Positions 1 through 45,809 of a stretch of 45,809 nucleotides of DNA are shown here, in pieces. Positions within the stretch are counted from its first letter, which is position 1. Every line of letters begins with the position of its first letter. The stretch comes from a virus, in IMG/VR virus record IMGVR_UViG_3300032770_000036, positions 1 to 45,809 of that record. One strand, given 5' to 3'. Made by a program: the position numbers and the translations under genes. Below the pieces are notes generated by a model. The model made no database searches, was not told the DNA's origin, and was given only the letters and a program-made list of their open reading frames with translations.

Positions 1-127
1 AAATTGGTCGGGTCGGTCGAGGCGGACGTCGGCGCGCCGACGACGGCGACGGGGATCGAGAAGCCCGAGCCGGTCCCGCCGACGCTGGCCGCCGCGACGC
101 CGAGCGTGTCCGTGGTCTTGTAGCCGG
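1..127. repeat. Terminal overlap, identical to 45683-45809
   Basis: Direct reading shows aaattggtcgggtcggtcgaggcgg...gtcttgtagccgg at both ends. It is 127 nt long and lies inside an ORF. Confidence 0.95.
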
Positions 128-728
128 TCCCGCGGGCTTCGAGCGCAACCGAGGAAATCGCGGTCCCGCCCGAGGCGATTTGGAACTGGCCCTTCGCGCC
201 CGAGCCCGAGCCGCCGGTGAAGGCGACGTTATCGTAGAACGCGCCCGTCGCCGCGACGGCGACCGACCAGCCCGAGCAGCCGGAGACGGAGCCGGTCAGC
301 GCGTCGTTGACGAGGTAGCCGGCGTTGTTCGCGCCGTGGCTGGTGATCGTGACGCTGATGACAGCGCCGCCGTAGGTGTTGACAGTCGCGACGGCGCCGG
401 TCGCGGCCGGCGTGGTGGCGTCGGTCAGGGCGACGGAGAAGCTGCCAGCCGCGCAGCCCGAGCCGCCGGTGATGGTCCCGAGCGACAGAACCGCCGTCCC
501 GGACGTGTAGCCGGAGCCGCCGGTGCGCGTCCCGAGGCTGCCGATCCCGCCGGTCGTGGTCGGAAAGACCGTGTTCGCCGCGCCGCCGAAGACGCCGGTG
601 AGCGCGATCGGGCCGGTATCCCACTGGATATTGTTGGAGGAGAAGAAGCCGGGCCTCGGCGGCGCGGCCTGCGCCCCAGCTAGGCTGAGCGCGAGGGCGC
701 TGACAGAGGCGATGAGGGCGCGCTTCAT
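1..728 (-). CDS. Signal-peptide tail-fibre/beta-helix-like protein, N-terminal part (gene crosses the contig junction and continues 45682 to 44389; 673 aa in total)
   Basis: My own reverse translation from ATG 728 gives MKRALIASVSALALSLAGAQA-APPRPGFF..., followed by GGxGY-type repeats. There is no stop before position 1. The frame joins exactly: 728+1294 = 2022 nt = 674 codons, matching track ORF 44389..45675. Confidence 0.7.
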   Translation of the reverse strand, partial: MKRALIASVSALALSLAGAQAAPPRPGFFSSNNIQWDTGPIALTGVFGGAANTVFPTTTGGIGSLGTRTGGSGYTSGTAVLSLGTITGGSGCAAGSFSVALTDATTPAATGAVATVNTYGGAVISVTITSHGANNAGYLVNDALTGSVSGCSGWSVAVAATGAFYDNVAFTGGSGSGAKGQFQIASGGTAISSVALEARGTGYKTTDTLGVAAASVGGTGSGFSIPVAVVGAPTSASTDPTN

Positions 729-1373: not shown

Positions 1374-1399
1374 CCGGCGCGACGCCGACATCGCGCCGG
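1374..1399 (-). terminator. GC-rich hairpin followed by a U-rich run on the minus strand (candidate intrinsic terminator or attenuator)
   Basis: ccggcgcga (1374-1382) pairs with tcgcgccgg (1391-1399) around an 8-nt loop. The minus-strand 3' flank reads GGCUAUUUAUAGG. Confidence 0.4.
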
Positions 1400-1461
1400 C
1401 CGGGGCAGTCTAAGGAGGAAACGCCATCGGACTGGTTCATCCTCTAGCGATAAAAACGTCT

Positions 1462-1475
1462 CACGCTTTTGCGAT
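1462..1475. promoter_or_regulatory. Operator variant CACGCTTTTGCGAT
   Basis: Hybrid half-site version of the 14-bp palindrome. It is the reverse complement of the 12028-12041 site. Confidence 0.45.
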
Positions 1476-1479
1476 AAAG

Positions 1480-1821
1480 TCAAGCACGCTTTTGCGTGTC
1501 GTCTCCGTCCCACTTTTCGAGCTGGTCGGCGTTGTAAATGTGGACTGAGCCGGGCTCGTGCAGGCTTTCGACGGCGACGCCGAACTCGGTGAGGCTTGTG
1601 CGGTAGAAGCCGACGACGCGGCCCCGCCAGGATGCGCCGCGCTTCGTCCGCACAAGGTCATGCGTGGCGAAGGGCCAACCGAGGAAGGTCGCCAGGTTGC
1701 AGGCCCGCATCGGGGGCGAGGCGAGGGCCTTGTCGATCTCGGAGAAGTCCTCGACCGCCTGAACCTCGGCCTTGCTCAATTGGGGTGCGCAGGCGCCGGA
1801 GGCGTCGCCGTCGAGAACCAT
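1480..1821 (-). CDS. Hypothetical protein (113 aa)
   Basis: Track ORF with high GC3. It abuts the upstream gene (1821/1822). Confidence 0.6.
   Translation of the reverse strand: MVLDGDASGACAPQLSKAEVQAVEDFSEIDKALASPPMRACNLATFLGWPFATHDLVRTKRGASWRGRVVGFYRTSLTEFGVAVESLHEPGSVHIYNADQLEKWDGDDTQKRA
1485..1498. promoter_or_regulatory. Operator palindrome CACGCTTTTGCGTG
   Basis: Perfect CACGC-N4-GCGTG inverted repeat. It overlaps the last codons of ORF 1480..1821. Confidence 0.55.
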
Positions 1822-12047: not shown

Positions 12048-12080
12048 TTGCTATCGGAACACGAAGCAAGGCGCACGCAA

Positions 12081-17527: not shown

Positions 17528-17561
17528 CAATCTGATATTGCACGCTTATTGCAAAAGCGTT

Positions 17562-17810: not shown

Positions 17811-20077
17811 AATGGAATGACCCTGATCGAGGGGGCGGAAGAATAGGTGACGTTGTATTTCCAGCCTGGCGGCAGGACGAACGGCACCTGCTCGCCGGTG
17901 ACTTGCGGGTTCCAATTCATCGACCCGCCGAGCGTGTCTTTCACGGTGACAACCGTGATATTGCCGGCCCACAGCGTCACATGCAGCGGGAAATTGTTCG
18001 TGTTCTGCCAGTCCGTGCCGCTGCTCGGGACGGAGGGCTGCGAAATAAGCGCGACCTGGTCGCCGCTTTTCTTGAGCGTGCCGTCCGAAAACTGCACCGG
18101 CTGCTCGACGACGATGTTCCCGCCCGCGAGATTGTTGATGTAGAAGTTCGCCCCGCTCTGCGAGAGGTTCGTCGTGTTCGGGCTGACGGACCCCTGCGTG
18201 ATCTGGATCGCGGCGACCGAAGCGTCGTTCGTCTGCACGACGAGCGGGCGGCCGCCGTAGAACTCGAATTGCCCATGCCCGCGCTCGATCAAGACCTGCT
18301 GCGCGTCGGCGCCGGTGATGATAGGCGCGGCCGCCGAGCCGAGGTTGCCGCTGATCGAAATATAGTTGGAGAGGGAGTTCGCGACGGCGAACGACGTCGT
18401 GCCGTCCTGGCAGGTGGTCGCGACATTCGCCGTGAGCGCGCCCCAGACGAATTGCCCGTGCCACTCGTCAGCCGCGCCGCCATAGGGGCTGTCGAACAGG
18501 AACGCCTGCTGGACGATCTCGATATCGCAGCCGTAGAACTTGTTCGCGAACGAATAGCCGTTGAGGTAGTGGATCGCGTAATTGCAGCCGCCGACGATGA
18601 TGCGCCCGCAAGACATCGTGACCGCCGCCATCTCGATACCGTAGGTCGGTCCCGGCGATGCGATGGTCGGGGCGGGCAGATTGACTTCGAGGCCAGCGAA
18701 GAAGCACGTAACCAACTGGTTCATGCGCAGGCCGACGCTGTTGGCCGCGCCAGACTTGTTCTCGACGATTATGTCGGTGTTGAGATCGTTGATGGCGTGC
18801 GGGAAGTTGAAGCCGTTGGGCGGGCTCTCGTCCGGTCCGAAGGTCGCCGCGCGGCCACCAGGGTTGTTACCCTGGATCTTGAAGCCCATCAGGTAGACGT
18901 AGAAGCTGTCGGTAACATTGCCGCCGGCGCTCGTATCTGTCAGCAAGAATTGCGTGTGCGTGCTCGTGCAGGCCGAGACGTCGAACACGGTCATGCTCTT
19001 GCCGGAGCCCTCGATCCATAGGCCCGTCTGCTGTGGCGTCCCCTGCACGCCGGGCGTCGCCATCGCGCCGCCGGAGGCGGTCAGCGAGGCAAGGTCGATG
19101 ACCCACTGCGAGCCGGAGATGATGTAGACGCCTGGCTCCGCGCGCAGGCGCTTCCCCGTGCTCATGCCGGCGGCGACCCAGGCGAGCACCGCCGTCGTGT
19201 CGTCGGTCAGATTGTCGCCGGCGGCGTCGAAGTCGCCCTTAAGCCATAGCTCGCCGGGGTTGGCGATCGCCTGCGTGGCGCGCGCGGCGATGAGCCGGAC
19301 GATGATGTCCGCGCCGCTCGCCGGCGCCTGCGTGAAGGTGATCGTCTGCGCGAGGGTGTCGAAGCTGTAGAGCGTGGGGTCGAGCAAGAGCTCGTTCGCG
19401 GTGACGAAGTAGGCGAGCGGGTTCAGGCTGATCGACGCGCCGAGGGTCGCGATCGAGAAGGTCGTCGTCGTCCCGTCGCCTGTCAGCGCGACATAGGCGA
19501 GCTGCGAGGCGGCCGAGCTCGACGCGAAGCTGCTGACGGCGTTGTTGATCGCCGTGACCAGCGTCTCAAGGTTCACCGCGTCTTCGTTCTGGACGGGATC
19601 CTTGACGTTGGAGATCGCCAGGCCGCCGGCGTTATAGAACCCGTCGCCGCCGAGGTCGGTCTGGTAGAACTGCAGCGCCAGGCGGGCGAGGCGAGAAACC
19701 TCGCGCTGCGCGGCGATGAGGGTCGAGATCGCCTGGTTGAACTCCCGTCGGGCGATACCGGGCGCGCTCGGCTGGATGAGCTGGCGGGCCTGCCAGTTGC
19801 CGATGATGACGATGACGCTCCCGGCGGCGACCGGCGTGTTGAAGGTCACGACGCCGTCGGTGATCGGAAGCGGGAGCTGGCTCAGGGGCGTCCCGGAAAG
19901 CGACGTGAACGTCCATTCGTTCGACGGGACGGGCGAGAAATTCACGAAGACGGCGAGATCTTCCTGCGCCCCAAAGACGGGGAAGGTCACGTTCATGGTC
20001 GACGTCGCCGTCCCCGGCGCGGACCAAATGTAGCGGTCCTCGTCGAGAATAGGGGGGACGTTCGGGAGGATCGCCAT
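17807..20077 (-). CDS. Tail fibre/tailspike (756 aa) with a T7 gp17-like N-terminal attachment domain and a beta-helix-like body
   Basis: The N-terminus follows the gp17 pattern (F.VPF....DL.V.VN......TF...; ...EFNQAISTLIAAQRE). GDNLTDDTTAVLAWVAAG resembles the pectate-lyase-type tailspike motif. Confidence 0.75.
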   Translation of the reverse strand: MAILPNVPPILDEDRYIWSAPGTATSTMNVTFPVFGAQEDLAVFVNFSPVPSNEWTFTSLSGTPLSQLPLPITDGVVTFNTPVAAGSVIVIIGNWQARQLIQPSAPGIARREFNQAISTLIAAQREVSRLARLALQFYQTDLGGDGFYNAGGLAISNVKDPVQNEDAVNLETLVTAINNAVSSFASSSAASQLAYVALTGDGTTTTFSIATLGASISLNPLAYFVTANELLLDPTLYSFDTLAQTITFTQAPASGADIIVRLIAARATQAIANPGELWLKGDFDAAGDNLTDDTTAVLAWVAAGMSTGKRLRAEPGVYIISGSQWVIDLASLTASGGAMATPGVQGTPQQTGLWIEGSGKSMTVFDVSACTSTHTQFLLTDTSAGGNVTDSFYVYLMGFKIQGNNPGGRAATFGPDESPPNGFNFPHAINDLNTDIIVENKSGAANSVGLRMNQLVTCFFAGLEVNLPAPTIASPGPTYGIEMAAVTMSCGRIIVGGCNYAIHYLNGYSFANKFYGCDIEIVQQAFLFDSPYGGAADEWHGQFVWGALTANVATTCQDGTTSFAVANSLSNYISISGNLGSAAAPIITGADAQQVLIERGHGQFEFYGGRPLVVQTNDASVAAIQITQGSVSPNTTNLSQSGANFYINNLAGGNIVVEQPVQFSDGTLKKSGDQVALISQPSVPSSGTDWQNTNNFPLHVTLWAGNITVVTVKDTLGGSMNWNPQVTGEQVPFVLPPGWKYNVTYSSAPSIRVIPF

Positions 20078-25418: not shown

Positions 25419-28400
25419 CTACTGATAATTGTAGTTGTCCCAAGTATTGCTGCCAGAAGAAGCGGCCGGTTGCACGCGACGCAAATCGAGCACGAACTTG
25501 GTCGGCGCTTCGCTGTCAGCGCCCTGGTAGGCGTAGACGGGGCGCGCGGGGTCACTGCCAAGACGGACGAAGTAGCGGCCGCTGCCTATACTTTCAAGCT
25601 GCGCGTTGTTGCGCAAATAATCCGCTGTCACGGGTTCCCCATTGGGCGACGTCACGCCGGCGAGCATCGGATCGGTCACGCCGGCGATCGTGCGATCGAA
25701 CCCGCGCTGGTCCATGCCGCGCTGCGGCGCGATGATGCTGCTCCCGTTATGCGTCACGACGCCGCCGGTGACATCGGCGACGGACTGCCGCACGCGATCG
25801 GGGCTGTAGCCGCTCTGCCCGCTCTGTGCGGCGAGGTCGGCGTAGCGCGCCCGCGCCATCGCCCGGATCGTCTCATAGGCTCCCGCGGGGTTCGCGCGGT
25901 CCTGGATGCTGAACATCGTCGGCGGCAGGGCGGCGTCGAGGTTCTGTTGAAACTGCGACTTGCCTCCGAGCTCGCCCTCGGGCGCCCAGCGCTTGGCGTC
26001 CTCGCGGAGAAGCCCCTGGCCGCGCATGACAGACTGTGCGACGTCGGGCGCGGTCGGCATGAGCGACGCCGCGGCCGCCATCGCCATGCCCTCGACGCCG
26101 CCGGCGCCAAGCGCCCTGAACGTCGCTTCCCGGCGATCCTCAGGCAGCGTCCCGATGGCGTTCGCGAGGTTCACGCGCTGCTGCAGCGAGCCCGAAGTCA
26201 GGATCCCGCGCGCCTGGGGCAGCTCGTCGGGCGCCAGCGCGGGCGCGGTGTTATCGCCGGTGCGCGCGGCGATCGACGAAGCGAGATCGCTGCGCTGATG
26301 CAGGCCAACAGCGAGCGCGTTCTGGTCGTCGAAGTTGAGCCCGATCGGCGCGCCCTCGCCGCCATCCCAGCCCTTGGCGACCGCGGTTCCCCAGGGGTCT
26401 TTCTTGAGCTGCTCGACGCCCTTGTCATAGAACGTGCGCGCCTGCTCGGCGACTTGCGCCTGGTAGAGCGAGCCGCCCTGCGCGCGGTCCTTGATCATGT
26501 CGATATAGGCCTGCCCCTGGCCCGGTGGCAGATTGATGGCCTGGTCTGACAGCGCGCGCGCTGTCACGGCCGCTTGCAGTTGCGCCGCTTTCTCCGCGAG
26601 CCGCGGGTCCGTCTGGGCGATCTGCGCGATCGAGGCGAGCGTGTCGACGCTCGGCATGATCCCGGCGCCGACCGATTTCGTCGCCCCCTCGATCATCGTC
26701 GCGGCGTAATTGTATCGGTTCTCGGGATCGAGCGTAATCGATTGCACGTAGGTCGAAAGCAGGAACGGGTTCTGCCGCACCTGCTCGGGCGTGAACGGCG
26801 TCCCGTTCGCCGACATCCCCGTGCCCTCGCCGAGCACGGCGCGCGCCTCGGCCTGGCGGCGCGCGTAGTTCGCGCCATTATTGTCGCCGGCGTGCGCCCG
26901 GATGGCGGCGGCGATCGCCGCGGGGTCGCCCGTCGCCGCAGCGGCCGCGACGTTCTGCGGGACATGCCCGTAATTGTAAGCCATCGACGTGATGGCCGCC
27001 TGCGCGCCTGGCGTCATGCTCGCCCATGCCGGGCCGATCGCCTGCGCCGCGCCCTGGGCGTAAATGCCCGTCCGGCGCTGCAGGTCGCGCTCGGCGTCCG
27101 CCGGCGTGATGCGCGTGTCGGGGCCGACCTCCTCCACGGTCCCGTCAGCCCGCGTCACGGTGTCGGAGCCGTAGCCGGTCCGCAGATGGTTGACATCGGG
27201 ATAGGGCGTCGTGCGCAGGCCCTCGGAGGCGCGCAACGCGCCTTGCACGTCGCCCCTGGCGAGGGCGCTGAGATAGAACCCGGCCGTCGTGCCGCCGACG
27301 CGGCTCGCGGCCCCCGAGGCGTCGATGGCGCCCTCGGGACCGAGGCCCTGGCGCACGAGCGACTGGTTAGGGCTGTCGGTCCGGGTCGCGTTCTGCAACT
27401 GCCAGACCTGATGCTCGGCGAGCAGGCGCTTCGTGTCGTCTTCCGCGCCCGGGATCGCGGCGCTCTTGAGGATGGCGGCCTGCCAGACCGGCTCTGTCAG
27501 CTTCGCGCTCGCTTCCGGGTTGTGCGCGGCCTGCGTCAGCGCTTCGAGGTTCGCTCGGTTCGCCGCGGCGTCGGCCTTGTATTGGCCGATCACGAAGCCG
27601 ATACGGCTTTCGCCGACGGCCATGAAGTGCGCTTGCTGCGACGGCGAGAGGCCGAGCTTCGGATCATGCACGGCGTCGAAGAGGTTCTGGCGCGCCTGGT
27701 CGACGCCGCCCGGCCCCTTCATGTCGCGATCGACATTGCCGGCGATCGCGTAGCCGTGAAGCAGGTTCAGGTCGGCCTTGTCGTTCGCGTCCTGCAGGGT
27801 TTGCGAGACGCCGAAGGCGGGGTTGGCGACGAGCTGGCGGCCGGCGGCCTGATAATCCGCCTGCGCCTTCTCCCAATCCGGCCCGGTCGTGACCCCTTGC
27901 TGCGCCAGCGACGACAGCGTGTTGAAGGCGCTTGTGCGGGCGTCGGCGATCGCCGTGCGCGCGTTCTCGACGTTCACCGTCGCCTGCCGCGCGACGGCGC
28001 CGTCGTAGTGCTGCGTCAGGACGCTCGACGCCCGGTCGGCCATCGCCTCGCCGATCGGGCCGGGGTTGCGCGCGCGGACCCCCGCGACATAGGCGTTGCC
28101 CGCCTGCAGAAGCCCCTGCGGGTCACCCTGGTGCTGCGCGGCCAGGTCCGCCATGTCGCGCTGCGCGAGGTTATCACCCTGCGCCAACGCGCCCGCCTTG
28201 ATCGCCTGCTCGTATGCGATCCCGGCCTGCCCGAGGATCGGCATTCCGGCGGGCTTGCCGACGGTGATATTGCCCTGCGCGTCGCGCGTCACCATGCCCG
28301 ACTGCAGGTCGGTGACAGCCTGGTCCTTCGCCGCGTGAACGGCGACCGCCTCCAGGCCATCCGAGAGGCGATCGAGGCCGGCCGCCAGGAAAGAGCCCGA

Positions 28401-28484
28401 GCGGGCGTACTGGAAGCCCGAGACGCGCGGCGTCGGGGCCTGGGCCGTGACGTCGGGCTGGTCGGGGATGGGGAGGTCGACCAC
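25419..28484 (-). CDS. Internal virion protein (1021 aa) with a central GH24-type lysozyme domain
   Basis: Residues about 405-552 read ...RASEGLRTTPYPDVNHLRTGYGSDTV...ITPADAERDL...AQAAITSMAYNYG...RRQAEARAVLG. This follows the phage lysozyme pattern EG.r...Y.D..g..TiGYG. Confidence 0.7.
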   Translation of the reverse strand: MVDLPIPDQPDVTAQAPTPRVSGFQYARSGSFLAAGLDRLSDGLEAVAVHAAKDQAVTDLQSGMVTRDAQGNITVGKPAGMPILGQAGIAYEQAIKAGALAQGDNLAQRDMADLAAQHQGDPQGLLQAGNAYVAGVRARNPGPIGEAMADRASSVLTQHYDGAVARQATVNVENARTAIADARTSAFNTLSSLAQQGVTTGPDWEKAQADYQAAGRQLVANPAFGVSQTLQDANDKADLNLLHGYAIAGNVDRDMKGPGGVDQARQNLFDAVHDPKLGLSPSQQAHFMAVGESRIGFVIGQYKADAAANRANLEALTQAAHNPEASAKLTEPVWQAAILKSAAIPGAEDDTKRLLAEHQVWQLQNATRTDSPNQSLVRQGLGPEGAIDASGAASRVGGTTAGFYLSALARGDVQGALRASEGLRTTPYPDVNHLRTGYGSDTVTRADGTVEEVGPDTRITPADAERDLQRRTGIYAQGAAQAIGPAWASMTPGAQAAITSMAYNYGHVPQNVAAAAATGDPAAIAAAIRAHAGDNNGANYARRQAEARAVLGEGTGMSANGTPFTPEQVRQNPFLLSTYVQSITLDPENRYNYAATMIEGATKSVGAGIMPSVDTLASIAQIAQTDPRLAEKAAQLQAAVTARALSDQAINLPPGQGQAYIDMIKDRAQGGSLYQAQVAEQARTFYDKGVEQLKKDPWGTAVAKGWDGGEGAPIGLNFDDQNALAVGLHQRSDLASSIAARTGDNTAPALAPDELPQARGILTSGSLQQRVNLANAIGTLPEDRREATFRALGAGGVEGMAMAAAASLMPTAPDVAQSVMRGQGLLREDAKRWAPEGELGGKSQFQQNLDAALPPTMFSIQDRANPAGAYETIRAMARARYADLAAQSGQSGYSPDRVRQSVADVTGGVVTHNGSSIIAPQRGMDQRGFDRTIAGVTDPMLAGVTSPNGEPVTADYLRNNAQLESIGSGRYFVRLGSDPARPVYAYQGADSEAPTKFVLDLRRVQPAASSGSNTWDNYNYQ

Positions 28485-38966: not shown

Positions 38967-39331
38967 CAGCGCCCTCGATACGGGCCAGGACCGCCGCCGG
39001 CGGGAAAGGCGTCGGGGATACCGCCCTTGATGATCCCGGAGGCGTAGGCGCCATAGACGATCGGGGCGAGCTTCTCCAACACCTTGCTCAGCTCAAGCGC
39101 GGTTCCGGGCTCGATACCGAAGTCGACGAGGATCTGCTGCACGCCGTTCGCGAAGGCGACCGCGTCGTTGAAGTCGAGCTTTCGATCGTGGATTTCGCGG
39201 ACCAGCACGACGGCGGCGCCGGCGGCGGTCGAGATGTCATCTATGACCACGGCGTCGCTCGCCTTCGCCTTGCCGCCGAGCGGCCCCGCCAGGAAGCGGA
39301 GCGCCGCGGCAAGAACAGATTTCCAGTTCAC
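38966..39331 (-). CDS. Hypothetical protein (121 aa)
   Basis: Track ORF. Confidence 0.5.
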   Translation of the reverse strand: MNWKSVLAAALRFLAGPLGGKAKASDAVVIDDISTAAGAAVVLVREIHDRKLDFNDAVAFANGVQQILVDFGIEPGTALELSKVLEKLAPIVYGAYASGIIKGGIPDAFPAGGGPGPYRGR

Positions 39332-39708
39332 TGCGCGCCGTTCTGGATCTTGTTGACCTGGGCGATCGCGGCCCCGATCTTGGCGATCAGCGTCGCCGAA
39401 TTAACCGTGGCGGGGTTCTCGCAGATCGTGTTGATGACAGCCTGCGCGCTCTGCACGTCCTTGCTCTGCTGTGCTGTCAGCTTGGAGATCCCGAGCACGA
39501 GATTGACGTCAGCCTGCAGGAACGGGACGAAGCCGCAGGCGAGCGCAGTGCTCATGCCCGCCTCGCTCTCGATGTTCTGCAGGTCCGATTGGACCTTGGC
39601 GAGCGAGCCCTGCAGGTCGGCGCTGCAGGCGTCGGGCGCCGTGGCGTCGAAGATGAAGGGCAGCGCGACAACCGTGAGGATCAGGTAAGAGCGGAATGTG
39701 AGCTGCAC
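39328..39708 (-). CDS. Signal-anchored periplasmic protein (126 aa; possibly spanin-like)
   Basis: The N-terminus reads MQLTFRSYLILTVVALPFIFDATA, followed by a helical Gln-rich body with four Cys. It lies within the lysis cluster. Confidence 0.45.
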   Translation of the reverse strand: MQLTFRSYLILTVVALPFIFDATAPDACSADLQGSLAKVQSDLQNIESEAGMSTALACGFVPFLQADVNLVLGISKLTAQQSKDVQSAQAVINTICENPATVNSATLIAKIGAAIAQVNKIQNGAQ

Positions 39709-39720: not shown

Positions 39721-40128
39721 TCAGTTCGGCTTCGGGGGAGGCGCGACGGCGGTCATGCTGGCTTGCAGGCGGCCGAACGACGCGACGAGCTTGTGAGCGA
39801 CGGCGACGGGGTCGAGGCCGACGGCGTGAAGCTCCTCGGGGATCGCGCCGGTGATCTTGGTCACGAGGTCGGCGATCATCGGAGAATGCACGTCGATCGA
39901 CTTCGTCGCGAGATTGTCGGTCGCCTTGGCGATTTCCTGCGCCGCCTTGTCGTCGATGTATTTCTCGACCTTGGCGAGGAGCGCCTGATCGACGGCGATC
40001 CCGGTGTAGCGCTTGACCTCGGCCACGAGGATACCGCCGACGCCGGTCACGATGGCGCCGAAGATGGCGACGAAATAGGGCTGCGCGGCGGCGAGCATCG
40101 AGCCGAGGGTGATGGTCGTGTCGGACAC
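39721..40128 (-). CDS. Holin-like membrane protein (135 aa)
   Basis: There is one N-terminal transmembrane helix (AAQPYFVAIFGAIVTGVGGILVA). The gene lies directly downstream of the endolysin gene. Confidence 0.4.
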   Translation of the reverse strand: MSDTTITLGSMLAAAQPYFVAIFGAIVTGVGGILVAEVKRYTGIAVDQALLAKVEKYIDDKAAQEIAKATDNLATKSIDVHSPMIADLVTKITGAIPEELHAVGLDPVAVAHKLVASFGRLQASMTAVAPPPKPN

Positions 40129-40140: not shown

Positions 40141-40629
40141 TCAGGCGACGAGGGGCTGTTCGGGTGACAGATCGTAGAGGTCGAGCGCGTTGTCCTCGAT
40201 CTCGTGAATGATGACCGTCGCGTAGTTCGGCGCGGTCGCGTAGTGCTTCGCCATCGCCGCCACGAAGTCGCGCCAGTCGGTCCCCGCCTCGCCGCCGGCG
40301 GCGCGCGCATCGGCGTAGATCGGGCTGTCAGCGAGCAGGCGGGCGTGGGCGAGGAAGCAGGCGGTCGCGGAGGGATATCTCGCGAAGGGTTGGCTCACCG
40401 AAACCATGCGGCCGCCGATGAACTCGTGCGTGCGCGCCATGACGAAGGCCTGGCCGCGCACCGCCTTGATCCCGAAATAATTGTTCGACCCCGGCGGGAT
40501 TTCGCGCCCGTAGGCGCTCTCGATCGCCCATTGCGCGAGGGTCACGCAGGCGGGAACGGCGGGATAGGCGCGCTGTGCGTCCTGCGCCGCCTGGATGATC
40601 TCGGGCGGAAAGAGGGAGAGGTTCGACAT
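40141..40629 (-). CDS. Endolysin, glucosaminidase (GH73/FlgJ-type) domain
   Basis: TLAQWAIESAYGREIPPGSNNYFGIKA...ARTHEF...FARYPS follows the pattern AQ.A.ESGWG....NN.FGIK...T.E....F..Y. The start was moved to ATG 40629. Confidence 0.8.
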   Translation of the reverse strand: MSNLSLFPPEIIQAAQDAQRAYPAVPACVTLAQWAIESAYGREIPPGSNNYFGIKAVRGQAFVMARTHEFIGGRMVSVSQPFARYPSATACFLAHARLLADSPIYADARAAGGEAGTDWRDFVAAMAKHYATAPNYATVIIHEIEDNALDLYDLSPEQPLVA

Positions 40630-40690
40630 CGGCGGCCTCAGTTCGCGGCGAGCGATGCGCCGCGGGCGCGCGCGGGCCAACGCACTCAGG

Positions 40691-42748
40691 TCAGTAATAT
40701 CCTTTCGACTGCAGCCATGACCGGACGCACTTGGTGATGCGGGAAGCGAACACGCGGTTGCCTAGCGCGTTGTTATGCGAGGCGGCGTCATAGGTGAAGT
40801 CGGTGTTTCCGGTCCCGTTCGGCGAGGCAATGGATCCCGTTCCGGTCTCGAATGGCCCATCGGCCGCGTTCGTCCAGGGGCAAAATACCGCCATCGGGTC
40901 GTTCATGGCCGCAAGCGCGGCTTGCGTCGCCTGCTCGGTGGCGACGCAGTTGTTCGTGCAGGATGTTCCCCCGAAGTTGTGAGCGTAAGCGCCAAGGACG
41001 ATGATCGGTATATTTGCTGTCTGAGGATGAGCGCGGAGGGTCTGTATGTAGGTCGTTTGAGCCGCCGCGATCTGCGAAGCGCTTAAGCTCGGGTAATCAT
41101 TGGTCCCGTTGCTTATGAGTAGAATATCCGGCCCAGCTCCGTTCTTCACGTTGAAGACGTCACTAATGCGACTGAGCGCTGAGCCTGACGTGCAGTCGGC
41201 GGCATTATATCCGCACCCCCCGATTGCCGTATTCACGAGGCCGATTATTCCTAGTTCGTCGGCTACGATGCGCGGATATGCCCACGCGCCGGAAAGCACG
41301 CCTCCCCCAAACGGGTAGCTATCGCCCATCGTCGCCATCGTAAGCACCGGAGGGCCGCCCGGATAATAGATGTCATCGCCCACGGCTATGTCGACGCCGC
41401 CAAAATGGCCAGAACCATCGTTCTCGACAATAATATCGCGAGCGGATCGGCCGCCTACACTGGAAAAGTCAAGTATTGTGTATTCCCAACCCGTGGTAAC
41501 AAGAGGGCCGTAATGATTAGGAGAAACATACTGGCAATGATCATGGTTAATCCCGCAGACAGCAAATCTCCACGCGCCACCAGCGCTCAGGGTAGATTGA
41601 TCGTAAGCCCTGAATACCATTACGGGCGCGGTCGTGACGAACTCGAACCGCCCAAAGCTGTTGGACGCGACCCCGGCGACCGTAGGCCCTCCGAAGCCCA
41701 CGTAGGATGTCCCTGAGCTATTGAGCGCGGTCGCGCCCTCCAGGCTGAAGTATGTCAGAAGGTTGCCCGCGCCGCCGTTCCAAAGCACCGAATGCGGCCC
41801 GCTATTTGAGTTGATAGCGGTCGGGAGATTGCGCAAATAGTTCCACGTGCAGGTGTTGTCGGTCTGGCCGCTTCCGGTCCCGCTTGGGCCGCTGCCGCTG
41901 GCCGCCGATGTGCAGGCGCCGGTGTTCTGGTAGAAATATCCAAGGGCGGTCGCCCCGGATCCCGTGAACGTGACCGCAACCGTCCCCGCGGGGTAGGCCG
42001 TATTTATGGCCCATCTGCTCGCGACCGTAACCGTAGGGGCGCCACCTGTCGGCGATTTCTGCACGGAATTCCAAAGACAGGTTCCGTCTGTAATCATTGA
42101 CCCCGCGGCCGACGGGCCTGAACCGGTTCCGGCGGAAGTACATGGCGTCGTATTTGAAGCGCCTCCCTGCATCTCCTCAAAGTATAAGCCGTTGTCAGAG
42201 ACAATCTCGCCGGGATAATAGGACGTGCTTTGCGCCCAGGCGGGAATGCCCATCGGCTGGTTGACTTGAAGGTTGTCCGACTGCGCGGCCCGCGCAAAGC
42301 GCGCTATGATGGCGAGTGTGTTGGGCGCGGCTCCGTCGACCTCTGAGGCCAGCAAGCCGAGCGTGGCCGGTATTTGAAGGCCGATCCCGGAGCCCGAGGT
42401 CGAGGTTTGGCTGCAATTCGTGGCCCCTCTCAGGACCATCCCCGTCGTCTTCCCTCCGGAAAGCAACGTCGCCGCCGTCGCGACGCCGCTCGCCGCAGTC
42501 ACGCTGATTACAGGGGGAATTGAGAAGGTTACGCCGTTGCATCCCAGAACGACCGTGTCCCCGGTCGCGTAACCCGTCATGGTTCCTGTCGGGGCGCCAA
42601 GACCATTCGGCGACAGGGCGAATTGGACGCCGGCGAAGTCGCTGACCTCTCGGCCTAGACCGCTTTGCTGAGCAAGAGCGGGGGGCGAGAACGCCAGCAG
42701 GGCACTGAGCGTGGCCGCTGCGAATGGGCTTCTGCGAGTGTATTTCAT
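40691..42748 (-). CDS. Signal-peptide protein (685 aa) with a C-terminal SGNH/GDSL hydrolase domain
   Basis: The start was moved to ATG 42748, giving MKYTRRSPFAAATLSALLAFSPPALA-QQ. The GDS block is TMGDSYPFGGG and the GxND block is LISNGTNDY. The C-terminus reads ...YDAASHNNALGN. Confidence 0.7.
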   Translation of the reverse strand: MKYTRRSPFAAATLSALLAFSPPALAQQSGLGREVSDFAGVQFALSPNGLGAPTGTMTGYATGDTVVLGCNGVTFSIPPVISVTAASGVATAATLLSGGKTTGMVLRGATNCSQTSTSGSGIGLQIPATLGLLASEVDGAAPNTLAIIARFARAAQSDNLQVNQPMGIPAWAQSTSYYPGEIVSDNGLYFEEMQGGASNTTPCTSAGTGSGPSAAGSMITDGTCLWNSVQKSPTGGAPTVTVASRWAINTAYPAGTVAVTFTGSGATALGYFYQNTGACTSAASGSGPSGTGSGQTDNTCTWNYLRNLPTAINSNSGPHSVLWNGGAGNLLTYFSLEGATALNSSGTSYVGFGGPTVAGVASNSFGRFEFVTTAPVMVFRAYDQSTLSAGGAWRFAVCGINHDHCQYVSPNHYGPLVTTGWEYTILDFSSVGGRSARDIIVENDGSGHFGGVDIAVGDDIYYPGGPPVLTMATMGDSYPFGGGVLSGAWAYPRIVADELGIIGLVNTAIGGCGYNAADCTSGSALSRISDVFNVKNGAGPDILLISNGTNDYPSLSASQIAAAQTTYIQTLRAHPQTANIPIIVLGAYAHNFGGTSCTNNCVATEQATQAALAAMNDPMAVFCPWTNAADGPFETGTGSIASPNGTGNTDFTYDAASHNNALGNRVFASRITKCVRSWLQSKGYY

Positions 42749-42764
42749 TTGTCCCCCCAGCGCA

Positions 42765-43757
42765 TCAGAAGCGTTCCACGATGATCGCGTAGCCCGCGCC
42801 GCCCGCAGCGCCAGCGCCGGCCGTGCCGCCATTCTGCGCCGAGCCGCCGCCGCCGCCCCCGCCGGCCGGCAGGCCCCCGGCGCCGCCCGCGAACGCCACG
42901 GTGGTCGACGAAGCGCCGCCGCCGCCGCCGCCGCCGACGAAGAGGTCAAGGGGGTAGGTCGACAGCGACGCCGCGACGCCGGCGCCGCCCGCGCCGGCGC
43001 CGGCCGTCCCGTTGGTGTTGGGGAAGGCCCCGTTGCCGCCGATCGCGCCATTGGCCGTCGCATTGCCGGACGTGATCCCGCCGCCGGAGCCGCCGGCGCC
43101 CGCGCCTGCCAGGCCAGGGCCGCCATTGCTCGCGCCGCCGGTCGCCGTGCCGCCGCCGCCGGCGCCCCCATAGCCCGGCGCGACCCCGACATTGCCGACC
43201 GCCCCGGAGCCGCCGTTGCTCTGCCCGGTTCCGTTGACGCCGCCCGTGCCGTTGGTCGAGCTGCCGCCAGCGGCGTAGCCCGTGTTGCCGCCCTGGCCGC
43301 CGCCGGACGCGCCGCCGAGCTGGCCGCCGGCGCCGCCGCCGCCGCCGAAGCCCGTCAGCAGCGAGCCAAACGTCGTGGCGCCGCCGGCGCCGCCGTTGCC
43401 GCCCGCCGTCGTGCTGACGGTGGCGGCCGCGCCCGCCGTTCCCGCCGCGCCGATCGTGACGGTCTGCGAGCTCCCAATCTCCGCCGCCGTGAACCTCGCG
43501 CAGCGATGGCCGCCGCCGCCCCCTCCGCCGCCGCCGGAAACGACCGTGGAGGCCGCCTGGAGCGCGCCGCCGCCGCCTCCGCCGCCCGCGCCGTAGACGC
43601 AGACCTCAGCCTCGGTGAGGCCCGGCGAGGGGGTATAGGTTCCGTTGGCGGAAATGGTCACGATGTTGATGCGCCGCGGCGCATAGCCGCCGCCGGCGAG
43701 CGCTGGGGAGGCGGCGAGCAGGGCGGCGAGGGAGATGAGGGCGCGGCGCGTCATCAT
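42765..43757 (-). CDS. Signal-peptide glycine-rich protein (330 aa)
   Basis: The sequence starts MMTRRALISLAALLAASPALA-GGG. It continues VCVYGAGGGGGGG...GGGGGGGGG...VTIGAAG...TTFG...GGGGG... and ends GYAIIVERF, the layout of phage and bacterial glycine-rich domain proteins. Confidence 0.65.
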   Translation of the reverse strand: MMTRRALISLAALLAASPALAGGGYAPRRINIVTISANGTYTPSPGLTEAEVCVYGAGGGGGGGALQAASTVVSGGGGGGGGGHRCARFTAAEIGSSQTVTIGAAGTAGAAATVSTTAGGNGGAGGATTFGSLLTGFGGGGGAGGQLGGASGGGQGGNTGYAAGGSSTNGTGGVNGTGQSNGGSGAVGNVGVAPGYGGAGGGGTATGGASNGGPGLAGAGAGGSGGGITSGNATANGAIGGNGAFPNTNGTAGAGAGGAGVAASLSTYPLDLFVGGGGGGGASSTTVAFAGGAGGLPAGGGGGGGSAQNGGTAGAGAAGGAGYAIIVERF

Positions 43758-44164
43758 TGAGCCCCCACGGTGAGCAAGCCGCCCGCGGCCGAGCCGATCG
43801 CATTGACGCTGTCGGTCGGCAGGGCGACGTCGAAGAACCGGAAACCGCCGGGTTGCAGCGCGATCTCGCCGGCCGCGCAGACGCCGGAGGAGATCGTCGC
43901 CGTTCCTCCGAATTTGATGCACAGCGTCGTCGAGCCGACGTTTTCGAGATAGAGAAACTGCGAGATCGACGTGACAGGCGTCCCCAGGATTGAACCGGAG
44001 CCGATGACGACCTGGTTCGACGCGCCGATCGTCGCGCCCTGGAAAGAGCCGGCGGCAAGGGGGATCGCCGAGGCGCGCGCGTTCTCGTAAGCGAAGAGGC
44101 CAGCGACGAGGCTGGCCGCGCTGACGGCGACGGCTAGGAGGGTCTTGGGCTTGGCGCGGCGCAT
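43754..44164 (-). CDS. Signal-peptide beta-rich small protein (136 aa)
   Basis: The N-terminus reads MRRAKPKTLLAVAVSAASLVAGLFAYENARA-SA. It has an ATGA overlap with the next gene. Confidence 0.55.
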   Translation of the reverse strand: MRRAKPKTLLAVAVSAASLVAGLFAYENARASAIPLAAGSFQGATIGASNQVVIGSGSILGTPVTSISQFLYLENVGSTTLCIKFGGTATISSGVCAAGEIALQPGGFRFFDVALPTDSVNAIGSAAGGLLTVGAQ

Positions 44165-44176
44165 TTGCGAAACTCC

Positions 44177-44386
44177 CTATTCCGGCGACTGATCTTGAAG
44201 CTCGTCCTGCGCCTGGTCGGCGTCGCGCAGCGTTTCGGCGTCGACCTCAACCTTCACAGCGCAGGCGACGGCCTTGTTTGTTTCCTCATGCCAGCGCGCC
44301 TCGATTTCTCGCTGGATGACCTGCGCGGGATCGGCGCGGGCCGCGGTGATAGCCGCGACGAAGGCGAAGAGGATGAGCAGCTTCAT
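44177..44386 (-). CDS. Signal-peptide acidic small protein (69 aa)
   Basis: Track ORF trimmed to MKLLILFAFVAAITAARA-DPAQ.... The ATG lies 2 nt after the upstream stop. Confidence 0.5.
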   Translation of the reverse strand: MKLLILFAFVAAITAARADPAQVIQREIEARWHEETNKAVACAVKVEVDAETLRDADQAQDELQDQSPE

Positions 44387-44388
44387 GA

Positions 44389-45682
44389 TCAGCACGCGGG
44401 GATGTAGCGGACCGTGCCGGAGGCGTCGGTGAAGGTGAGCCATTCCTGCACGGTCGAGTGAATGCCGCTCGGGCCGAGCGTGCCGACGCAGGCGGTGGTC
44501 GAGCCGTTGGCGGTCCAGCCGCCAGTCGTGCCGACCTTCAGGACTTCCGAGCCCGTGCCGAAGACGATCGGGGCGTTCGCCGTGTTGAAGAGCTGCAGCG
44601 CGTTCGCGCCCTGGCCGCCGGAGAATGCGCCGCCGTTGAGGGCGACGCCGGCCTGGTTGATCGCATTCGAGTTGCCGAAGTAGAGCGTCTCTTTGGCGGC
44701 CGTCCCGGTCGAGGAATTGCGCAGCGTCGCCGAGCTGACGCCGTTCGTATTGTTGAAGGTCGCGAACTGATCGGTCGAGTTGATCGGAGCGTTGATGTCG
44801 ATCCCTTCAAACCCGCTGTTCGTCGAGGCGAACTGCGCGACCGGCGAATTGCCGCTGTCGATCGTCGTGTTGCCGGCGCCCGAGACGTGCATGCCGTTCT
44901 GCGTCGTCGCGGTCCCGGAAATCGTGATCGTGCCGCCGACGAAGTTGAAGGAGCCGTCGATGTAGCCGTTGCCCTGCGGGCCGCGCAGCGTGAAGCCGGA
45001 GACGGCGGAATAATTGTAGAGGTCGACGCCGGCGTAGATCGAGCCGCAATTGCCCGCCGCGGCGTGGCCATTCGTGTTGGTCAGCGAGGCGTGAACCCAG
45101 CAGCCGACGAGCTCGCCCGTCGTCTTGATCGAGGGGAAGCCGTCGTAGGAGCCGTCGGCGAAGCCCATGTCGAAGCCGGGATTGGCGGCCAGCGACTTGT
45201 TGATGGAATAGCCGAGCGTATTGATCAGCGAGGCGTTCTCGTACCCCGGCGACTGCACGATTTGCTCGCCGATGACGACGTCGACCGTCGCGCCGGGCCG
45301 GATGTCGAGATCGTTCTCCTGACCGATGCACTGGTGCCAGTAGAGCGCGCCGGCGAGCAGGCGACAGATCGGGTTAAGGGAGAAGGCGTCGCCGCGCCCG
45401 TTGCCCGCGCCCGCCGTCCCGGTCGGCCCGGGGACCGAGATCTGCGTGACAGGCGAGAGGGACGTGTAGTCGCGCCACGTCGTGTCGATCGGCGCGACGT
45501 TGAGGTTGAGCACGAACTGGCCGGTGAGGCGGCTCCCCTGGCCGCCGCCGGTGTTGAGGTTCCAATTGAAGGCGACGACGCCGTTCGGCGAGGACGTGTC
45601 CTGCACCGTGTCGGCGGTATACGTGAAGTTGTTGTAGATAGTTTCAACGGGGTCGGCGCTAACGCCCGACGCCACGCTGGTG
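44389..45682 (-). CDS. C-terminal part of the junction-spanning signal-peptide beta-helix-like protein (see 1..728)
   Basis: The track ORF 44389..45675 has no stop upstream through 45809. The GTG at 45675 is an artefact of the window edge; the true start is ATG 728 across the junction. Confidence 0.7.
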
Positions 45683-45809
45683 AAATTGGTCGGGTCGGTC
45701 GAGGCGGACGTCGGCGCGCCGACGACGGCGACGGGGATCGAGAAGCCCGAGCCGGTCCCGCCGACGCTGGCCGCCGCGACGCCGAGCGTGTCCGTGGTCT
45801 TGTAGCCGG
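45683..45809. repeat. Terminal overlap, identical to 1-127
   Basis: Same 127-nt string as the window start. Confidence 0.95.

Follow-up and report, generated by a model that had tools for sequence, protein, structure and literature searches.

Five consecutive minus-strand genes (g1 to g5) of the soil phage analysed here encode products that all begin with a predicted signal peptide. To the reading that they form a mobile, late-expressed, periplasm-exported and probably glycan-directed phage accessory module acting on the host envelope, we give an even chance. If so, phages carry a type of accessory module that has not been described before, with the host envelope and not the virion as its target.

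Arrangement of the cassette and its surroundings

The whole stretch of DNA analysed (the window) has 45,809 nucleotides. Its nt 45683-45809 (127 nt) exactly repeat nt 1-127 as an assembly overlap, and the circle is 45,682 bp. The full g1 gene crosses the junction (728..1 joined to 45682..44389). The five minus-strand reading frames of the original prediction lie where it placed them, with the N-terminal sequences that it quoted, and encode products of 673, 69, 136, 330 and 685 aa (Table 1). Independent gene calls on identical public contigs (JGI 3300032954 and Logan SRR8881745) gave the same five lengths. The spacing is tight: g1/g2 and g3/g4 overlap by 4 nt, and gaps of 12-16 nt precede g3 and g5. 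Upstream of g3, g4 and g5 the sequence is rich in purines.

Table 1. Positions of the cassette genes and neighbouring features in the window
Feature	Position (nt)	Strand	Remarks
Upstream control node	1374..1496	-	two palindrome copies, then GC-rich hairpin
g1, 5' part	1..728	-	codons 1-243 of 673-aa protein; signal peptide MKRALIASVSALALSLAGAQA encoded at 666-728
g1, 3' part	44389..45682	-	aa 243-673; central and C-terminal domain
g2, 69 aa	44177..44386	-	signal peptide MKLLILFAFVAAITAARA, then short charged helical tail
g3, 136 aa	43754..44164	-	long signal peptide; 2 Cys in mature part
g4, 330 aa	42765..43757	-	Tat-like signal peptide MMTRRALISLAALLAASPALA at nt 43695-43757
g5, 685 aa	40691..42748	-	signal peptide at nt 42671-42748
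Endolysin (glucosaminidase, FlgJ-type)	40141..40629	-	immediately downstream of cassette
Small membrane proteins after endolysin	39721-40128 and 39328-39708		
Virion tail fibre or spike, 756 aa	17807..20077	-	no signal peptide; end of structural operon; comparator

Because the cassette shares its strand with the lysis and virion genes and lies directly upstream of them, we infer that it is co-transcribed late. A promoter-plus-terminator node had been proposed on its other side. A GC-rich hairpin with an 11-bp stem (1399-1374, minus strand) and two copies of the operator-like palindrome CACGCAAAAGCGTG (1462-1473 and 1485-1496) were present there, but a search of the cassette strand and of the region upstream gave no sigma-70-like promoter. 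Two small ORFs (1234-1350 and 774-1115) separate the node from g1. The sole terminator-like match on the cassette strand within the cassette (42485-42470) falls inside g5, and such matches occurred at shuffle level.

These observations bear on whether the genes are lysogenic-conversion morons, which a prophage would express to change the cell surface (seroconversion or exclusion) in the manner of the O-antigen acetylases and glucosyltransferases of P22-like and Sf6-like phages. A temperate lifestyle is possible for this phage, in which a weakly matching Peptidase_S24 (CI/LexA-like) protein and an HTH_3 protein adjoin clustered operator-like palindromes; an esterase could alter O-antigen acetylation, and the cassette is missing from relatives. 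However, no integrase was found in this phage, the searches above gave no sigma-70-like promoter and only the terminator-like match inside g5, and the genes are tightly packed in one orientation with the lysis and virion genes. The operator-like sites upstream make it more likely that the unit is repressed in a lysogen. We therefore regard conversion as quite improbable.

In lambdoid phages, non-essential genes for signal-peptide-bearing products (stx, and lambda bor and lom) lie in late units upstream of or beside the lysis genes. The cassette, likewise a set of non-essential genes, resembles them in its late position near lysis genes, its signal-peptide products and its absence from close relatives. 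In contrast, its products are fibre-like and esterase-like rather than toxins or outer-membrane proteins and show no homology to them, and it consists of five tightly spaced genes for which neither a separate promoter nor a separate terminator was identified. Likening its site to that of Shiga-toxin morons was fair as a positional analogy and nothing beyond that.

Signal peptides and cysteine pairing

Signal peptides were scored on 55 curated genes of this phage with a self-written n-h-c heuristic, which looks for a positive n-region, a hydrophobic h-region free of charge and an AXA-type site. The cassette genes occupied the top five places with scores of 4.8-5.9; next, at 3.8, came a membrane protein from the lysis region. 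The probability that the top five scorers are adjacent on the circle by chance is 1.6e-5. This result bears out the run of five back-to-back signal-peptide genes. The N-terminus of g4 (T-R-R-A-L-I-S) fits the twin-arginine consensus, and that of g5 (T-R-R-S-P-F) does so only partly. The endolysin did not pass the test. Elsewhere in the genome the heuristic gave a few weak false positives.

The signals recur in homologues. They were present in 8 of 10 close g1 homologues and in 43 of 61 full-length proteins that represent the central domain of g1, and the homologues with signal peptides come from contigs of 45% to 68% GC. An even number of cysteines in the mature part was counted for 46 of 47 g1-family members with a signal versus 10 of 19 without one, in a set slightly larger than the 61 full-length relatives. 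The g4 family gave 7 of 7 versus 63%. In contig L107, a signal-bearing Gly-rich protein has 8 Cys; of the six proteins encoded upstream of it, five are free of Cys.

It could be argued that the N-termini are hydrophobic by chance or that starts were mis-called in ordinary cytoplasmic phage proteins, since Ala/Leu-rich stretches are common in GC-rich genomes and the heuristic is not free of false positives. Against this, two independent pipelines called the same starts, the starts are tightly spaced with purine-rich stretches before three of them, the top scores are adjacent, signals recur over a wide range of GC and the even-Cys rule holds. This explanation is very improbable. Export of the cassette products, as originally claimed, is strongly supported by these features: the signal peptides are kept across divergent homologues, and the cysteines occur in conserved or pairwise-gained pairs. 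The compartment reached would be the periplasm.

Domains of the products

Residues 60-230 of g1 consist of two copies of a beta-rich repeat domain of about 70 aa (about nt 39-551), which is also conserved in homologues. The AF2 model of g1 has a helix at aa 2-18, and pLDDT was about 72-90 per 10-residue block for aa 60-230 only. At E<=1e-3, g1 homologues fell into 271 representative clusters. By similarity, the 3' part of g1 belongs to a mostly exported, fibre-like family, whose members without signal carry fibre-type N-termini in its place. Some members (P0010, P0011, P0165, P0166 and P0168) have a Peptidase_S74 chaperone at the C-terminus, a domain that g1 lacks.

In g4, a glycine-rich domain follows directly after the signal peptide, from about aa 31. 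It matched phrog_863 and Gly_rich_2, the latter at 18 bits and under the cut-off. A stretch of 107 aa starting at residue 31 of g4 shares 52% identity with residues 226-332 of a 530-aa DUF2793+Gly_rich_2 protein of Methylocystis, encoded by the last gene of a GTA-like tail cluster. The resemblance is to the Gly-rich C-terminal domain of fibre proteins from Methylocystis GTAs or prophages. From the g4 relatives, we would guess that the host is a Hyphomicrobiales-like alphaproteobacterium. No anchor domain was detectable in mature g1 or g4; judged by their sequences, the two are receptor-binding-protein bodies with an export signal in place of the virion anchor.

The SGNH esterase domain expected at the end of one product was found at the C-terminus of g5 (aa 473-671, nt 40736-41332), where PF00657 scored 27.6 bits against a cut-off of 23.6. 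The conserved residues are GDS475-477, N547-G-x-N-D551 and H658, with catalytic Ser and His intact. The N-terminal ~450 aa are putatively Cys-paired. The 14 Cys of g5 make seven putative pairs, conserved or gained pairwise relative to P0002, its sole homologue, which has a signal peptide too. From the SGNH and receptor-binding-protein-type domains we infer a glycan-directed action of the cassette; SGNH enzymes also act on lipids and peptidoglycan O-acetyl groups. The AF2 models made of two cassette proteins were poor (mean pLDDT 49 and 35.5). Foldseek returned no matches, and no glycan-active fold was identified in the cassette.

SGNH esterases are also known from virions, for example in the tailspike of phage G7C, an O-antigen deacetylase, and in spikes with acetyl esterase activity on Vi capsule. 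Like g5, they carry the SGNH domain on a large receptor-binding-type carrier, and receptor de-O-acetylation is plausible in both. Unlike g5, with its signal peptide and putatively paired cysteines, they have N-terminal virion-attachment domains, lack a signal peptide and are components of the particle. Outside the SGNH core, no similarity of g5 to them was detectable.

As for the small products, coiled-coil proteins with signals follow g1 homologues in L084, L085 and L101, in a position like that of g2, and no sequence homology with g2 was detected. A weak match of g3 was to phrog_29535. In other contigs small proteins with signals are encoded ahead of g1 homologues, and g3 has no significant similarity to them.

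The products may instead be virion appendages, that is, secondary receptor-binding proteins exported for folding and disulfide formation in the periplasm, which would join fibre-less or stub-bearing particles once lysis brings the compartments together. In L084, L085 and L101, signal-bearing g1 homologues lie among connector, adaptor or virion-structural genes, the usual surroundings of true fibre genes. The S74 chaperone is typical of virion fibres and spikes, and the signal-less relatives with fibre-like N-termini show that the same body can serve as a fibre. Short signal-less proteins resembling fibre N-termini are encoded just upstream of the signal-bearing genes in L104 and L081, which could be a stub-plus-distal-part arrangement. 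However, this phage already has an anchored fibre at the canonical position: the 756-aa protein matched the T7 tail-fibre N-domain weakly and tail-spike and tail-fibre PHROGs, confirming the separate signal-less fibre noted earlier. The cassette is placed apart from the tail module and ahead of the lysis and terminase genes, its mature g1 and g4 show no detectable anchor, and it also holds small exported partners and an esterase without fibre features. No tailed phage is known to us that adds fibres matured in the periplasm, and we consider appendages unlikely. The claim that these are not virion proteins is plausible for this phage, given the separate fibre and the gene position, but the structural surroundings of the three homologues count against it.

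Mobility and possible role of the cassette

The three closest IMG/VR relatives (TerL 64% identical) were syntenic from TerL on through the structural module, as far as the internal-protein gene in which the compared loci end. A different, shorter stretch replaces the cassette and lysis genes in all three, and no homologue of any of g1-g5 occurred among 80 TerL-related loci. The motif CTGWCAG has 57 sites on the genome against 3.7 expected. It is absent from 40332-45682 plus 1..699 (6,050 nt, with 7.5-8.7 sites expected), the longest such gap of the genome, which coincides with the cassette; a maximum gap this long has P about 0.02. The claim of zero sites holds over these 6,050 nt, but one site (700-706) lies in the signal-peptide codons of g1. 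The GC3 of g5 (0.69) is atypical, most other clearly coding ORFs having 0.78-0.93. In another phage lineage, L103 and L104 have flanks 94-99% identical and differ in their signal-protein cassette. Absence from relatives, the CTGWCAG desert, the GC3 of g5 and this swap all support the original view of an acquired cassette.

Signal-bearing fibre, beta-helix, Gly-rich or SGNH genes were also found next to endolysin genes in the unrelated contigs L081, L100, L107 and L108, where large products adjoin GH108, lysozyme or amidase endolysins. Together with the position of the cassette, immediately ahead of the endolysin gene and in the same orientation, this raises the possibility of a lysis accessory: enzymes and binding proteins in the periplasm would attack the envelope from its inner side and complete or speed endolysin lysis; g5, for example, could strip peptidoglycan O-acetyl groups or cleave ester-linked outer-membrane lipids. 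None of the three small proteins past the endolysin matched a PHROG family or was annotated as a spanin. Exported lysis proteins have precedents in the secreted and SAR endolysins (fOg44 Lys44 and P1 Lyz; PMC6116005), which are likewise late proteins that the host Sec system exports ahead of lysis, and whose genes lie within or next to the lysis cassette. In contrast to these peptidoglycan hydrolases, none of the products of g1-g5 contains a peptidoglycan-hydrolase domain, and fibre, repeat and Gly-rich receptor-binding architectures are unexpected in lysis enzymes. In L100 a lipobox protein (LSGC) stands beside the endolysin, so that the signal-bearing fibre is no spanin replacement there; in L104, L085 and L101 the module lies away from the lysis genes, and the adjacency may simply mirror a frequent arrangement in which lysis genes come after fibre genes. 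We consider a role in lysis unlikely.

In the accessory-module reading that we favour, the five genes would be a horizontally mobile cassette built from parts of receptor-binding proteins. In this scheme g1 supplies the fibre body, g4 the glycine-rich domain of a fibre tip and g5 an SGNH esterase borne by a large, Cys-rich carrier, with g2 and g3 as two small partners. Since a predicted Sec or Tat signal peptide occupies the position of the virion-attachment domain in each product, the host would export them to the periplasm in late infection, where they would fold with disulfide bonds. Most likely they would bind and modify envelope polysaccharide (O-antigen, capsule or EPS), both in the periplasm and in the post-burst lysate, with de-O-acetylation by g5 as one possible change. 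Receptors on the infected cell and on its debris would be stripped or altered, which would help progeny to escape and/or block superinfection. The glycan substrate, the benefit to the phage and the presumed non-incorporation into virions belong to this proposal. A Sec substrate in a diderm halts in the periplasm, and action on surface glycan before lysis would therefore need access to nascent chains, which we assume.

Tailspike-like glycan enzymes delivered to the periplasm by Tat or Sec offer a parallel. WceF of Pantoea stewartii is Tat-exported and trims EPS (PMC7949094), and a phage Vi depolymerase artificially directed to the periplasm degrades capsule in transit (PMC6003464). The two show that the proposed periplasmic mechanism is physically possible. 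WceF, likened here by architecture alone, is a host gene within an EPS biosynthesis cluster and the Vi depolymerase was targeted artificially; neither is a natural phage-encoded exported enzyme.

The mosaic adhesive trimer (MAT) fibres of Bdellovibrio bacteriovorus (PMC10769870) have a signal peptide, a body resembling that of phage tail fibres and tips that can be exchanged; they are exported and not virion-attached, and many end in Peptidase_S74, as some g1-family members do. Unlike the phage-encoded g1, which is without S74, they are chromosomal in a predatory bacterium and serve prey recognition. They share a beta-rich domain of ~130 aa after the signal peptide, and their likeness to g1 is one of architecture.

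Export signals of the cassette proteins

The original prediction was that five back-to-back minus-strand genes (g1-g5, the cassette) all begin with Sec-type signal peptides. The five open reading frames, their coordinates and the N-termini quoted for them proved correct, and an independent gene caller returned the same five products. The genes are closely spaced, with 4-nt overlaps at g1/g2 and g3/g4 and gaps of 12-16 nt elsewhere, and purine-rich stretches lie upstream of three of the five starts. Signal peptides were scored on the 55 curated genes of the phage with our own n-h-c heuristic, in which a Sec signal has a positive n-region, about 8-18 uncharged, hydrophobic residues as its h-region and a cleavage site with small residues at both -3 and -1. 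All five cassette proteins passed and took the five top scores among the 55 genes (4.8-5.9); the runner-up, at 3.8, was a membrane protein of the lysis region. The chance adjacency of five such genes has P ~1.6e-5, and it is hardly conceivable that the signal peptides or the cassette are an artefact. The Tat motif was defined as S/T-R-R-x-F-L-K ahead of the h-region. T-R-R-A-L-I-S of g4 fits it and T-R-R-S-P-F-A of g5 fits it partially, RR being common at 66% GC; RR is lacking in g1 and g2, and in g3 it stands at positions 2-3, outside any Tat motif.

The sole g5 homologue found (P0002, 44% identical by BLAST) carries a signal peptide that is different in sequence and equally typical, and a signal peptide was present in 8 of 10 g1 homologues. 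When g1 residues 244-673 were employed for a HMMER search, 271 representative clusters were recovered at E<=1e-3, and 43 of the 61 matches of this g1-domain search that covered the central domain and were seemingly full-length begin with a signal peptide. The minority of g1 relatives without a signal have N-termini that look fibre-like to us.

The 14 cysteines of g5 form seven putative pairs by position, each of which is kept in P0002 or gained or lost whole. In the g1 family (the 61 full-length matches and five close homologues), an even number of cysteines was counted in the mature part of 46/47 signal-bearing members versus 10/19 members without signal; for the g4 family the figures were 7/7 and 63%. 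On contig L107, a signal-bearing glycine-rich protein has 8 cysteines, and five of its six upstream neighbours have none. Thus export of the cassette proteins looks real from three independent lines, namely the signal conserved despite divergence, the cysteine pairing of g5 and the even-cysteine rule of the family.

Receptor-binding-type modules and their N-termini

After its signal, g1 has two copies of a ~70-aa beta-rich repeat, followed by the central and C-terminal region that defines the family. Some flagellar hook proteins, and proteins that have a phage-stabilisation domain, contain the same type of repeat as an insert, and an IMG/VR scan with the full g1 alignment returned repeat-domain matches only. 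Several g1 relatives (including P0010, P0011 and P0166) end in Peptidase_S74, the intramolecular chaperone of phage fibres and spikes; g1 itself has no S74. The ten g1-family clusters looked up were all on metagenomic contigs only, nine of them as singletons, and no g1-domain or g5 relative was confirmed when 185,579 species-representative genomes were scanned.

In g4 the signal peptide is joined directly to a glycine-rich domain. Its Pfam score for Gly_rich_2 (PF21722) was 18.3 bits, under the cut-off of 24.3. Residues 31-137 are 52% identical to residues 226-332 of P0054, a Methylocystis echinoides protein that carries PF21722, and g4 is assigned as a predicted Gly_rich_2 protein by this homology and not by the Pfam score alone. 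The best g4 relatives are ~530-aa proteins of Methylocystis, Rhodoblastus, other Hyphomicrobiales and Rhizobium, in which an N-terminal DUF2793 or Mtd_N/HylP-type domain precedes the same glycine-rich domain. The M. echinoides relative is the last gene of a GTA-like tail cluster, directly after the GTA_TIM/Phage-tail_3 host-specificity gene. The closest named g4 relatives suggest a Hyphomicrobiales-type host for the phage. At this locus (L106, CP156084.1) the DUF2793+Gly_rich_2 gene that closes the cluster is followed by a Peptidase_M15_4 gene. A protein with a g1-like body and a Gly-rich tail (P0008) was considered as proof of a g1-g4 link and rejected, with a BLAST E of 0.45 between its tail and g4 and no Pfam domain in the tail; this fusion is only suggestive.

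The Cys-rich N-terminal part of g5 (~450 aa) is followed by a C-terminal SGNH esterase domain, which scored above the cut-off for PF00657 (27.6 versus 23.6 bits) and below it for PF13472 (29.8 versus 32.9). The catalytic blocks G475-D-S477, N547-G-T-N-D551 and H658 are invariant in P0002. The Asp of block V is ambiguous: D654 is in g5 only, and D650 is invariant with P0002. The Pfam cut-off and catalytic blocks I (GDS), III (GxND) and V (DxxH) identify this domain as a putative SGNH/GDSL hydrolase. g2 and g3 are predicted small exported proteins without informative homologues, and neither NCBIfam nor PADLOC gave a match for any of g1-g5.

Of the HHpred or structure and Foldseek comparison proposed originally, AlphaFold2 was run for g1 and g5 and Foldseek for g1, and they gave no fold. 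The g1 model (with 10 homologues) had a mean pLDDT of 49 and was confident only in the repeat domain (aa 60-230), the g5 model (with a single homologue) had a pLDDT of 35.5, and Foldseek of the g1 model against the PDB found no match at E<=0.001. Because of these poor models and the Foldseek result, no fold was assigned to either protein. Searches of PDB sequences returned nothing useful for either protein.

An N-terminal virion-attachment domain (T7 gp17-N, DUF2793, Mtd_N/HylP-N or similar) is absent from g1, g4 and g5, and in g4 the signal peptide occupies the place of the anchor domain of its relatives. As judged from these domain comparisons, g1 and g4 are probably distal receptor-binding-type parts of fibres, in which an export signal has taken the place of the virion anchor. 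The most economical reading, to which we give about an even chance, is that the cassette is mobile, is expressed late and encodes exported receptor-binding-type proteins, which are outside the particle and act on envelope polysaccharide. Its compartment, substrate and benefit to the phage are what we infer. The proteins would be exported late, fold in the periplasm and stay out of the particle. On envelope polysaccharide they would modify or destroy receptors, with predicted esterase chemistry from g5 and binding from g1 and g4, and this action would aid release or exclude competitors.

Such a scheme is physically possible because there are precedents. A phage depolymerase artificially routed to the periplasm degrades capsule in transit (PMC6003464). 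WceF of Pantoea is Tat-exported and tailspike-like and trims EPS (PMC7949094). Bdellovibrio has exported proteins that are fibre-like and end in S74 (PMC10769870); the body of these MAT fibres is trimeric, a signal peptide and a conserved ~130-aa beta-rich domain directly after it stand at the N-terminus (PMC10769870), and many have Peptidase_S74 at the C-terminus. In g1 a signal peptide is present and S74, found in some of its relatives, is absent, and its model (pLDDT 49) resolves no fibre fold.

Position, control and mobility of the cassette

The window is a complete, circularly assembled phage genome with 66.5% GC. Its last 127 nt exactly repeat nt 1-127, an assembler k-mer overlap that marks a circular contig, so the true genome length is 45,682 bp; when the ends are joined naively with the overlap kept, a false frameshift is created in g1. 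The identical sequence is also JGI metagenome contig Ga0335083_10004251 and a Logan assembly of SRR8881745. A single long minus-strand unit begins at about 4.1 kb, crosses the junction and reaches down to 17.8 kb, with small genes, the cassette, a glucosaminidase endolysin and small membrane proteins, and then the virion genes. The latter are, in order, TerL, a T7-type portal, a scaffold candidate, the major capsid protein, tail tube proteins A and B, internal virion proteins and a 756-aa fibre or spike, which ends the series and has a weak T7 fibre N-domain match. One of the internal virion proteins has a Phage_lysozyme domain, which we liken to the cell-wall-degrading domain of T7 gp16-type ejection proteins.

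Coordinates of the features discussed (window numbering unless a contig is named)
Feature	Position	Strand	Remark
g1 (junction gene)	728..1 + 45682..44389	-	673 aa
g2	44177..44386	-	69 aa
g3	43754..44164	-	136 aa
g4	42765..43757	-	330 aa
g5	40691..42748	-	685 aa
Endolysin	40141-40629	-	
Terminal repeat	45683-45809		copy of nt 1-127
Fibre or spike	17807-20077	-	
Phage_lysozyme-domain internal virion protein	25419-28484	-	1,021 aa; domain at aa 420-531
R67-type DHFR-domain protein	1480-1821	-	113 aa
Gene shared with closest relatives	3455-4024		
HTH_3 protein	7723-8256	-	177 aa
Peptidase_S24-like protein	11177-11986	+	269 aa
Product without Pfam match	16169-17362		397 aa
Hairpin upstream of cassette	1399-1374		
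Operator-like palindrome clusters	1462-1496, 4573-4658, 11131-11179, 12006-12041, 17514-17561		first cluster in node upstream of cassette
CTGWCAG example sites	2358, 3118, 4914, 17021, 29259		57 sites in whole window
L085 (MAG GCA_040384185.1)	1103-13283		signal-peptide-protein run
L103	7135-10796		exchanged cassette
L104	9390-12031		exchanged cassette
L106 (CP156084.1)	1-10121		GTA-like cluster

The cassette had been likened to Shiga-toxin morons, and its position agrees with this: a late control node lies upstream, the endolysin lies downstream and the cassette is missing in relatives. It therefore shares with lambdoid-type late-operon morons the node-to-lysis-gene position and the dispensability among relatives; unlike them, no promoter and terminator of its own were found. 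A promoter-plus-terminator node had also been claimed upstream. A hairpin and operator-like repeats are present there, but no sigma-70-like site was found, and a scan for the sigma-70 consensus type on the minus strand, in and upstream of the cassette, gave no promoter. The sole minus-strand terminator-like match within the cassette lies inside g5, and such matches are at shuffle level. Just upstream of the control node is a gene for an R67-type dihydrofolate reductase domain (PF06442, 56 bits versus a cut-off of 25), the fold of the plasmid-borne trimethoprim-insensitive enzyme; its product has 113 aa.

An operator-like palindrome, CACGCAAAAGCGTG, often TTGCACGCAAAAGCGTG, occurs in clusters, two or three copies each, that for the most part lie within intergenic gaps or border them. 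In total, 21 matches with <=2 mismatches were counted versus 8 expected, and the divergent early region and the node ahead of the cassette are among the places with clusters. The Peptidase_S24 (LexA/CI-type) match of the 269-aa protein is weak, and its gene adjoins palindrome clusters; a 177-aa HTH_3 protein is also encoded. These S24-like and HTH_3 genes hint that the phage may be temperate. Expression of the cassette from a prophage, as conversion genes, would be consistent with the repressor-like gene and with the clustered palindromes, of which two copies lie upstream of the cassette; however, no integrase was detected in the window, where the 397-aa product has no Pfam match, and no promoter was found on the cassette strand. 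We regard this explanation as quite improbable.

Cultured phages are all distant from this phage (best TerL identity 45%). The three closest IMG/VR relatives are 64% identical in TerL and 74% in the capsid protein, and are syntenic from TerL onward along the covered structural module, their loci ending in an internal-protein gene. The gene at 3455-4024 has a homologue in them as well; from there to TerL they have ~4.6 kb of unrelated small genes versus ~10 kb in the window. The cassette is missing from these relatives, and homologues of g1-g5 were likewise missing from all of 80 TerL-related loci. Virion fibres would be sought in the tail module and conserved in relatives, and the cassette is instead upstream of the lysis genes and TerL and missing in syntenic relatives.

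The 7-nt palindrome CTGWCAG is ~15-fold over-represented, with 57 sites versus 3.7 expected. Its sites are mostly within genes on both strands, often as GCTGWCAGC, and some are paired 8-16 nt apart. The cassette had been described as free of this site. The sole long site-free stretch, 6,050 nt (probability of so long a maximum gap ~0.02), is indeed the cassette; it begins inside the endolysin gene and stops at g1 codon 8. CTGWCAG may serve as a packaging signal, bind a protein or be tied to a methylase or to restriction. A stop-plus-Shine-Dalgarno junction element, for which absence from the cassette would be trivial, was rejected because most sites are inside genes. As for composition, GC3 is 0.69 in g5, with local GC down to 0.59, and 0.78-0.93 in most other clearly coding ORFs, including g1 and g4. 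By its absence from relatives, the site-free stretch and the composition of g5, the cassette looks acquired.

The clearest sign of cassette mobility comes from another lineage, two 72-kb IMG/VR phages (L103 and L104). Their flanks are 94-99% identical over >13 kb, and their signal-peptide-protein cassettes (2.6 kb versus 3.7 kb) are non-homologous and appear to have been exchanged. The recombination break is inside a small signal-bearing gene, so that a common signal peptide is joined to different mature parts.

Related cassettes in other phages

Signal-bearing g1-type fibres, beta-helix, Gly-rich or SGNH proteins recur in unrelated phage contigs with 45%-68% GC. Adjacency to a lysis cassette is common (L100, L081, L107 and L108). 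The order in L100 is a fibre, a 269-aa protein with a signal peptide, a GH108 endolysin and a lipobox protein, and in L081 GH108 is flanked by two signal-bearing proteins. A lysis-accessory role next to the endolysin would suit this arrangement, and we consider it unlikely.

In three other contigs (L084, L085 and L101), signal-bearing g1 homologues are among connector, adaptor and structural genes, and in L104 the signal-bearing genes are in an insert between head-morphogenesis and protease genes. Their presence in structural modules would fit proteins that mature in the periplasm and join the particle at lysis as true virion appendages, which is an improbable reading of the cassette proteins. 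A more specific version is that fibres or secondary receptor-binding proteins are sent via Sec or Tat, are disulfide-stabilised in the periplasm and dock at lysis onto anchor stubs of otherwise complete particles. The homologues inside these connector/adaptor modules, the S74 fibre chaperone on some of them and short anchor-only fibre N-terminus proteins ahead of signal-bearing genes in L104 and L081 are in its favour. To our knowledge, a two-compartment virion assembly pathway exists in no tailed phage, and we rate this version as a little less probable still.

A small signal-bearing coiled-coil protein comes after the g1 homologue in L084, L085 and L101, and g2 is likewise positioned in the window; a small signal-bearing beta protein is ahead of the g1 homologue in L084, L100 and L104. 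Membership of g3 in the latter family was tried and rejected, as a three-sequence profile gave E=0.14 against a tiny database. Since this score is not significant, only an analogous position is claimed for g2 and g3, not homology.

Phage receptor-binding proteins and depolymerases are usually seen as parts of the particle or as soluble by-products freed at lysis. In the literature we found no description of phage-encoded cassettes whose receptor-binding modules bear export signals in place of anchors, and single ingredients have precedent in phage late genes for exported products, exported bacterial fibre-like proteins and SGNH tailspikes. A tblastn search of 50,697 cultured-phage records returned none for g1, g3 and g4 and only weak SGNH matches for g5; by this search, none of them appears to carry such a cassette. 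The family is sizeable: the g1 domain alone accounts for 271 representative clusters, and members were found here almost exclusively on metagenomic contigs. It combines anchor replacement by an export signal and a periplasmic-folding cysteine signature with cassette exchange between near-identical phages. Should the proteins work on glycans of the envelope from within the infected cell, they would be the phage analogue of the receptor-destroying enzymes of viruses, with a bearing on superinfection exclusion, on how progeny leave hosts rich in capsule or EPS and on the evolution of host range; they could also supply disulfide-stabilised proteins that bind or modify glycans. If they are instead added to virions after export, this would be a new assembly route. 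Either way, the 'tail fibre' labels of annotation pipelines would mislead for such genes.

A run of signal-bearing genes was also observed in L085, a phage-like contig, with seven signal-peptide proteins in ten consecutive genes. They include two Tat-like TRR motifs, one SGNH protein and one S74-ended fibre, and SU10-adaptor-like genes are interspersed among them.
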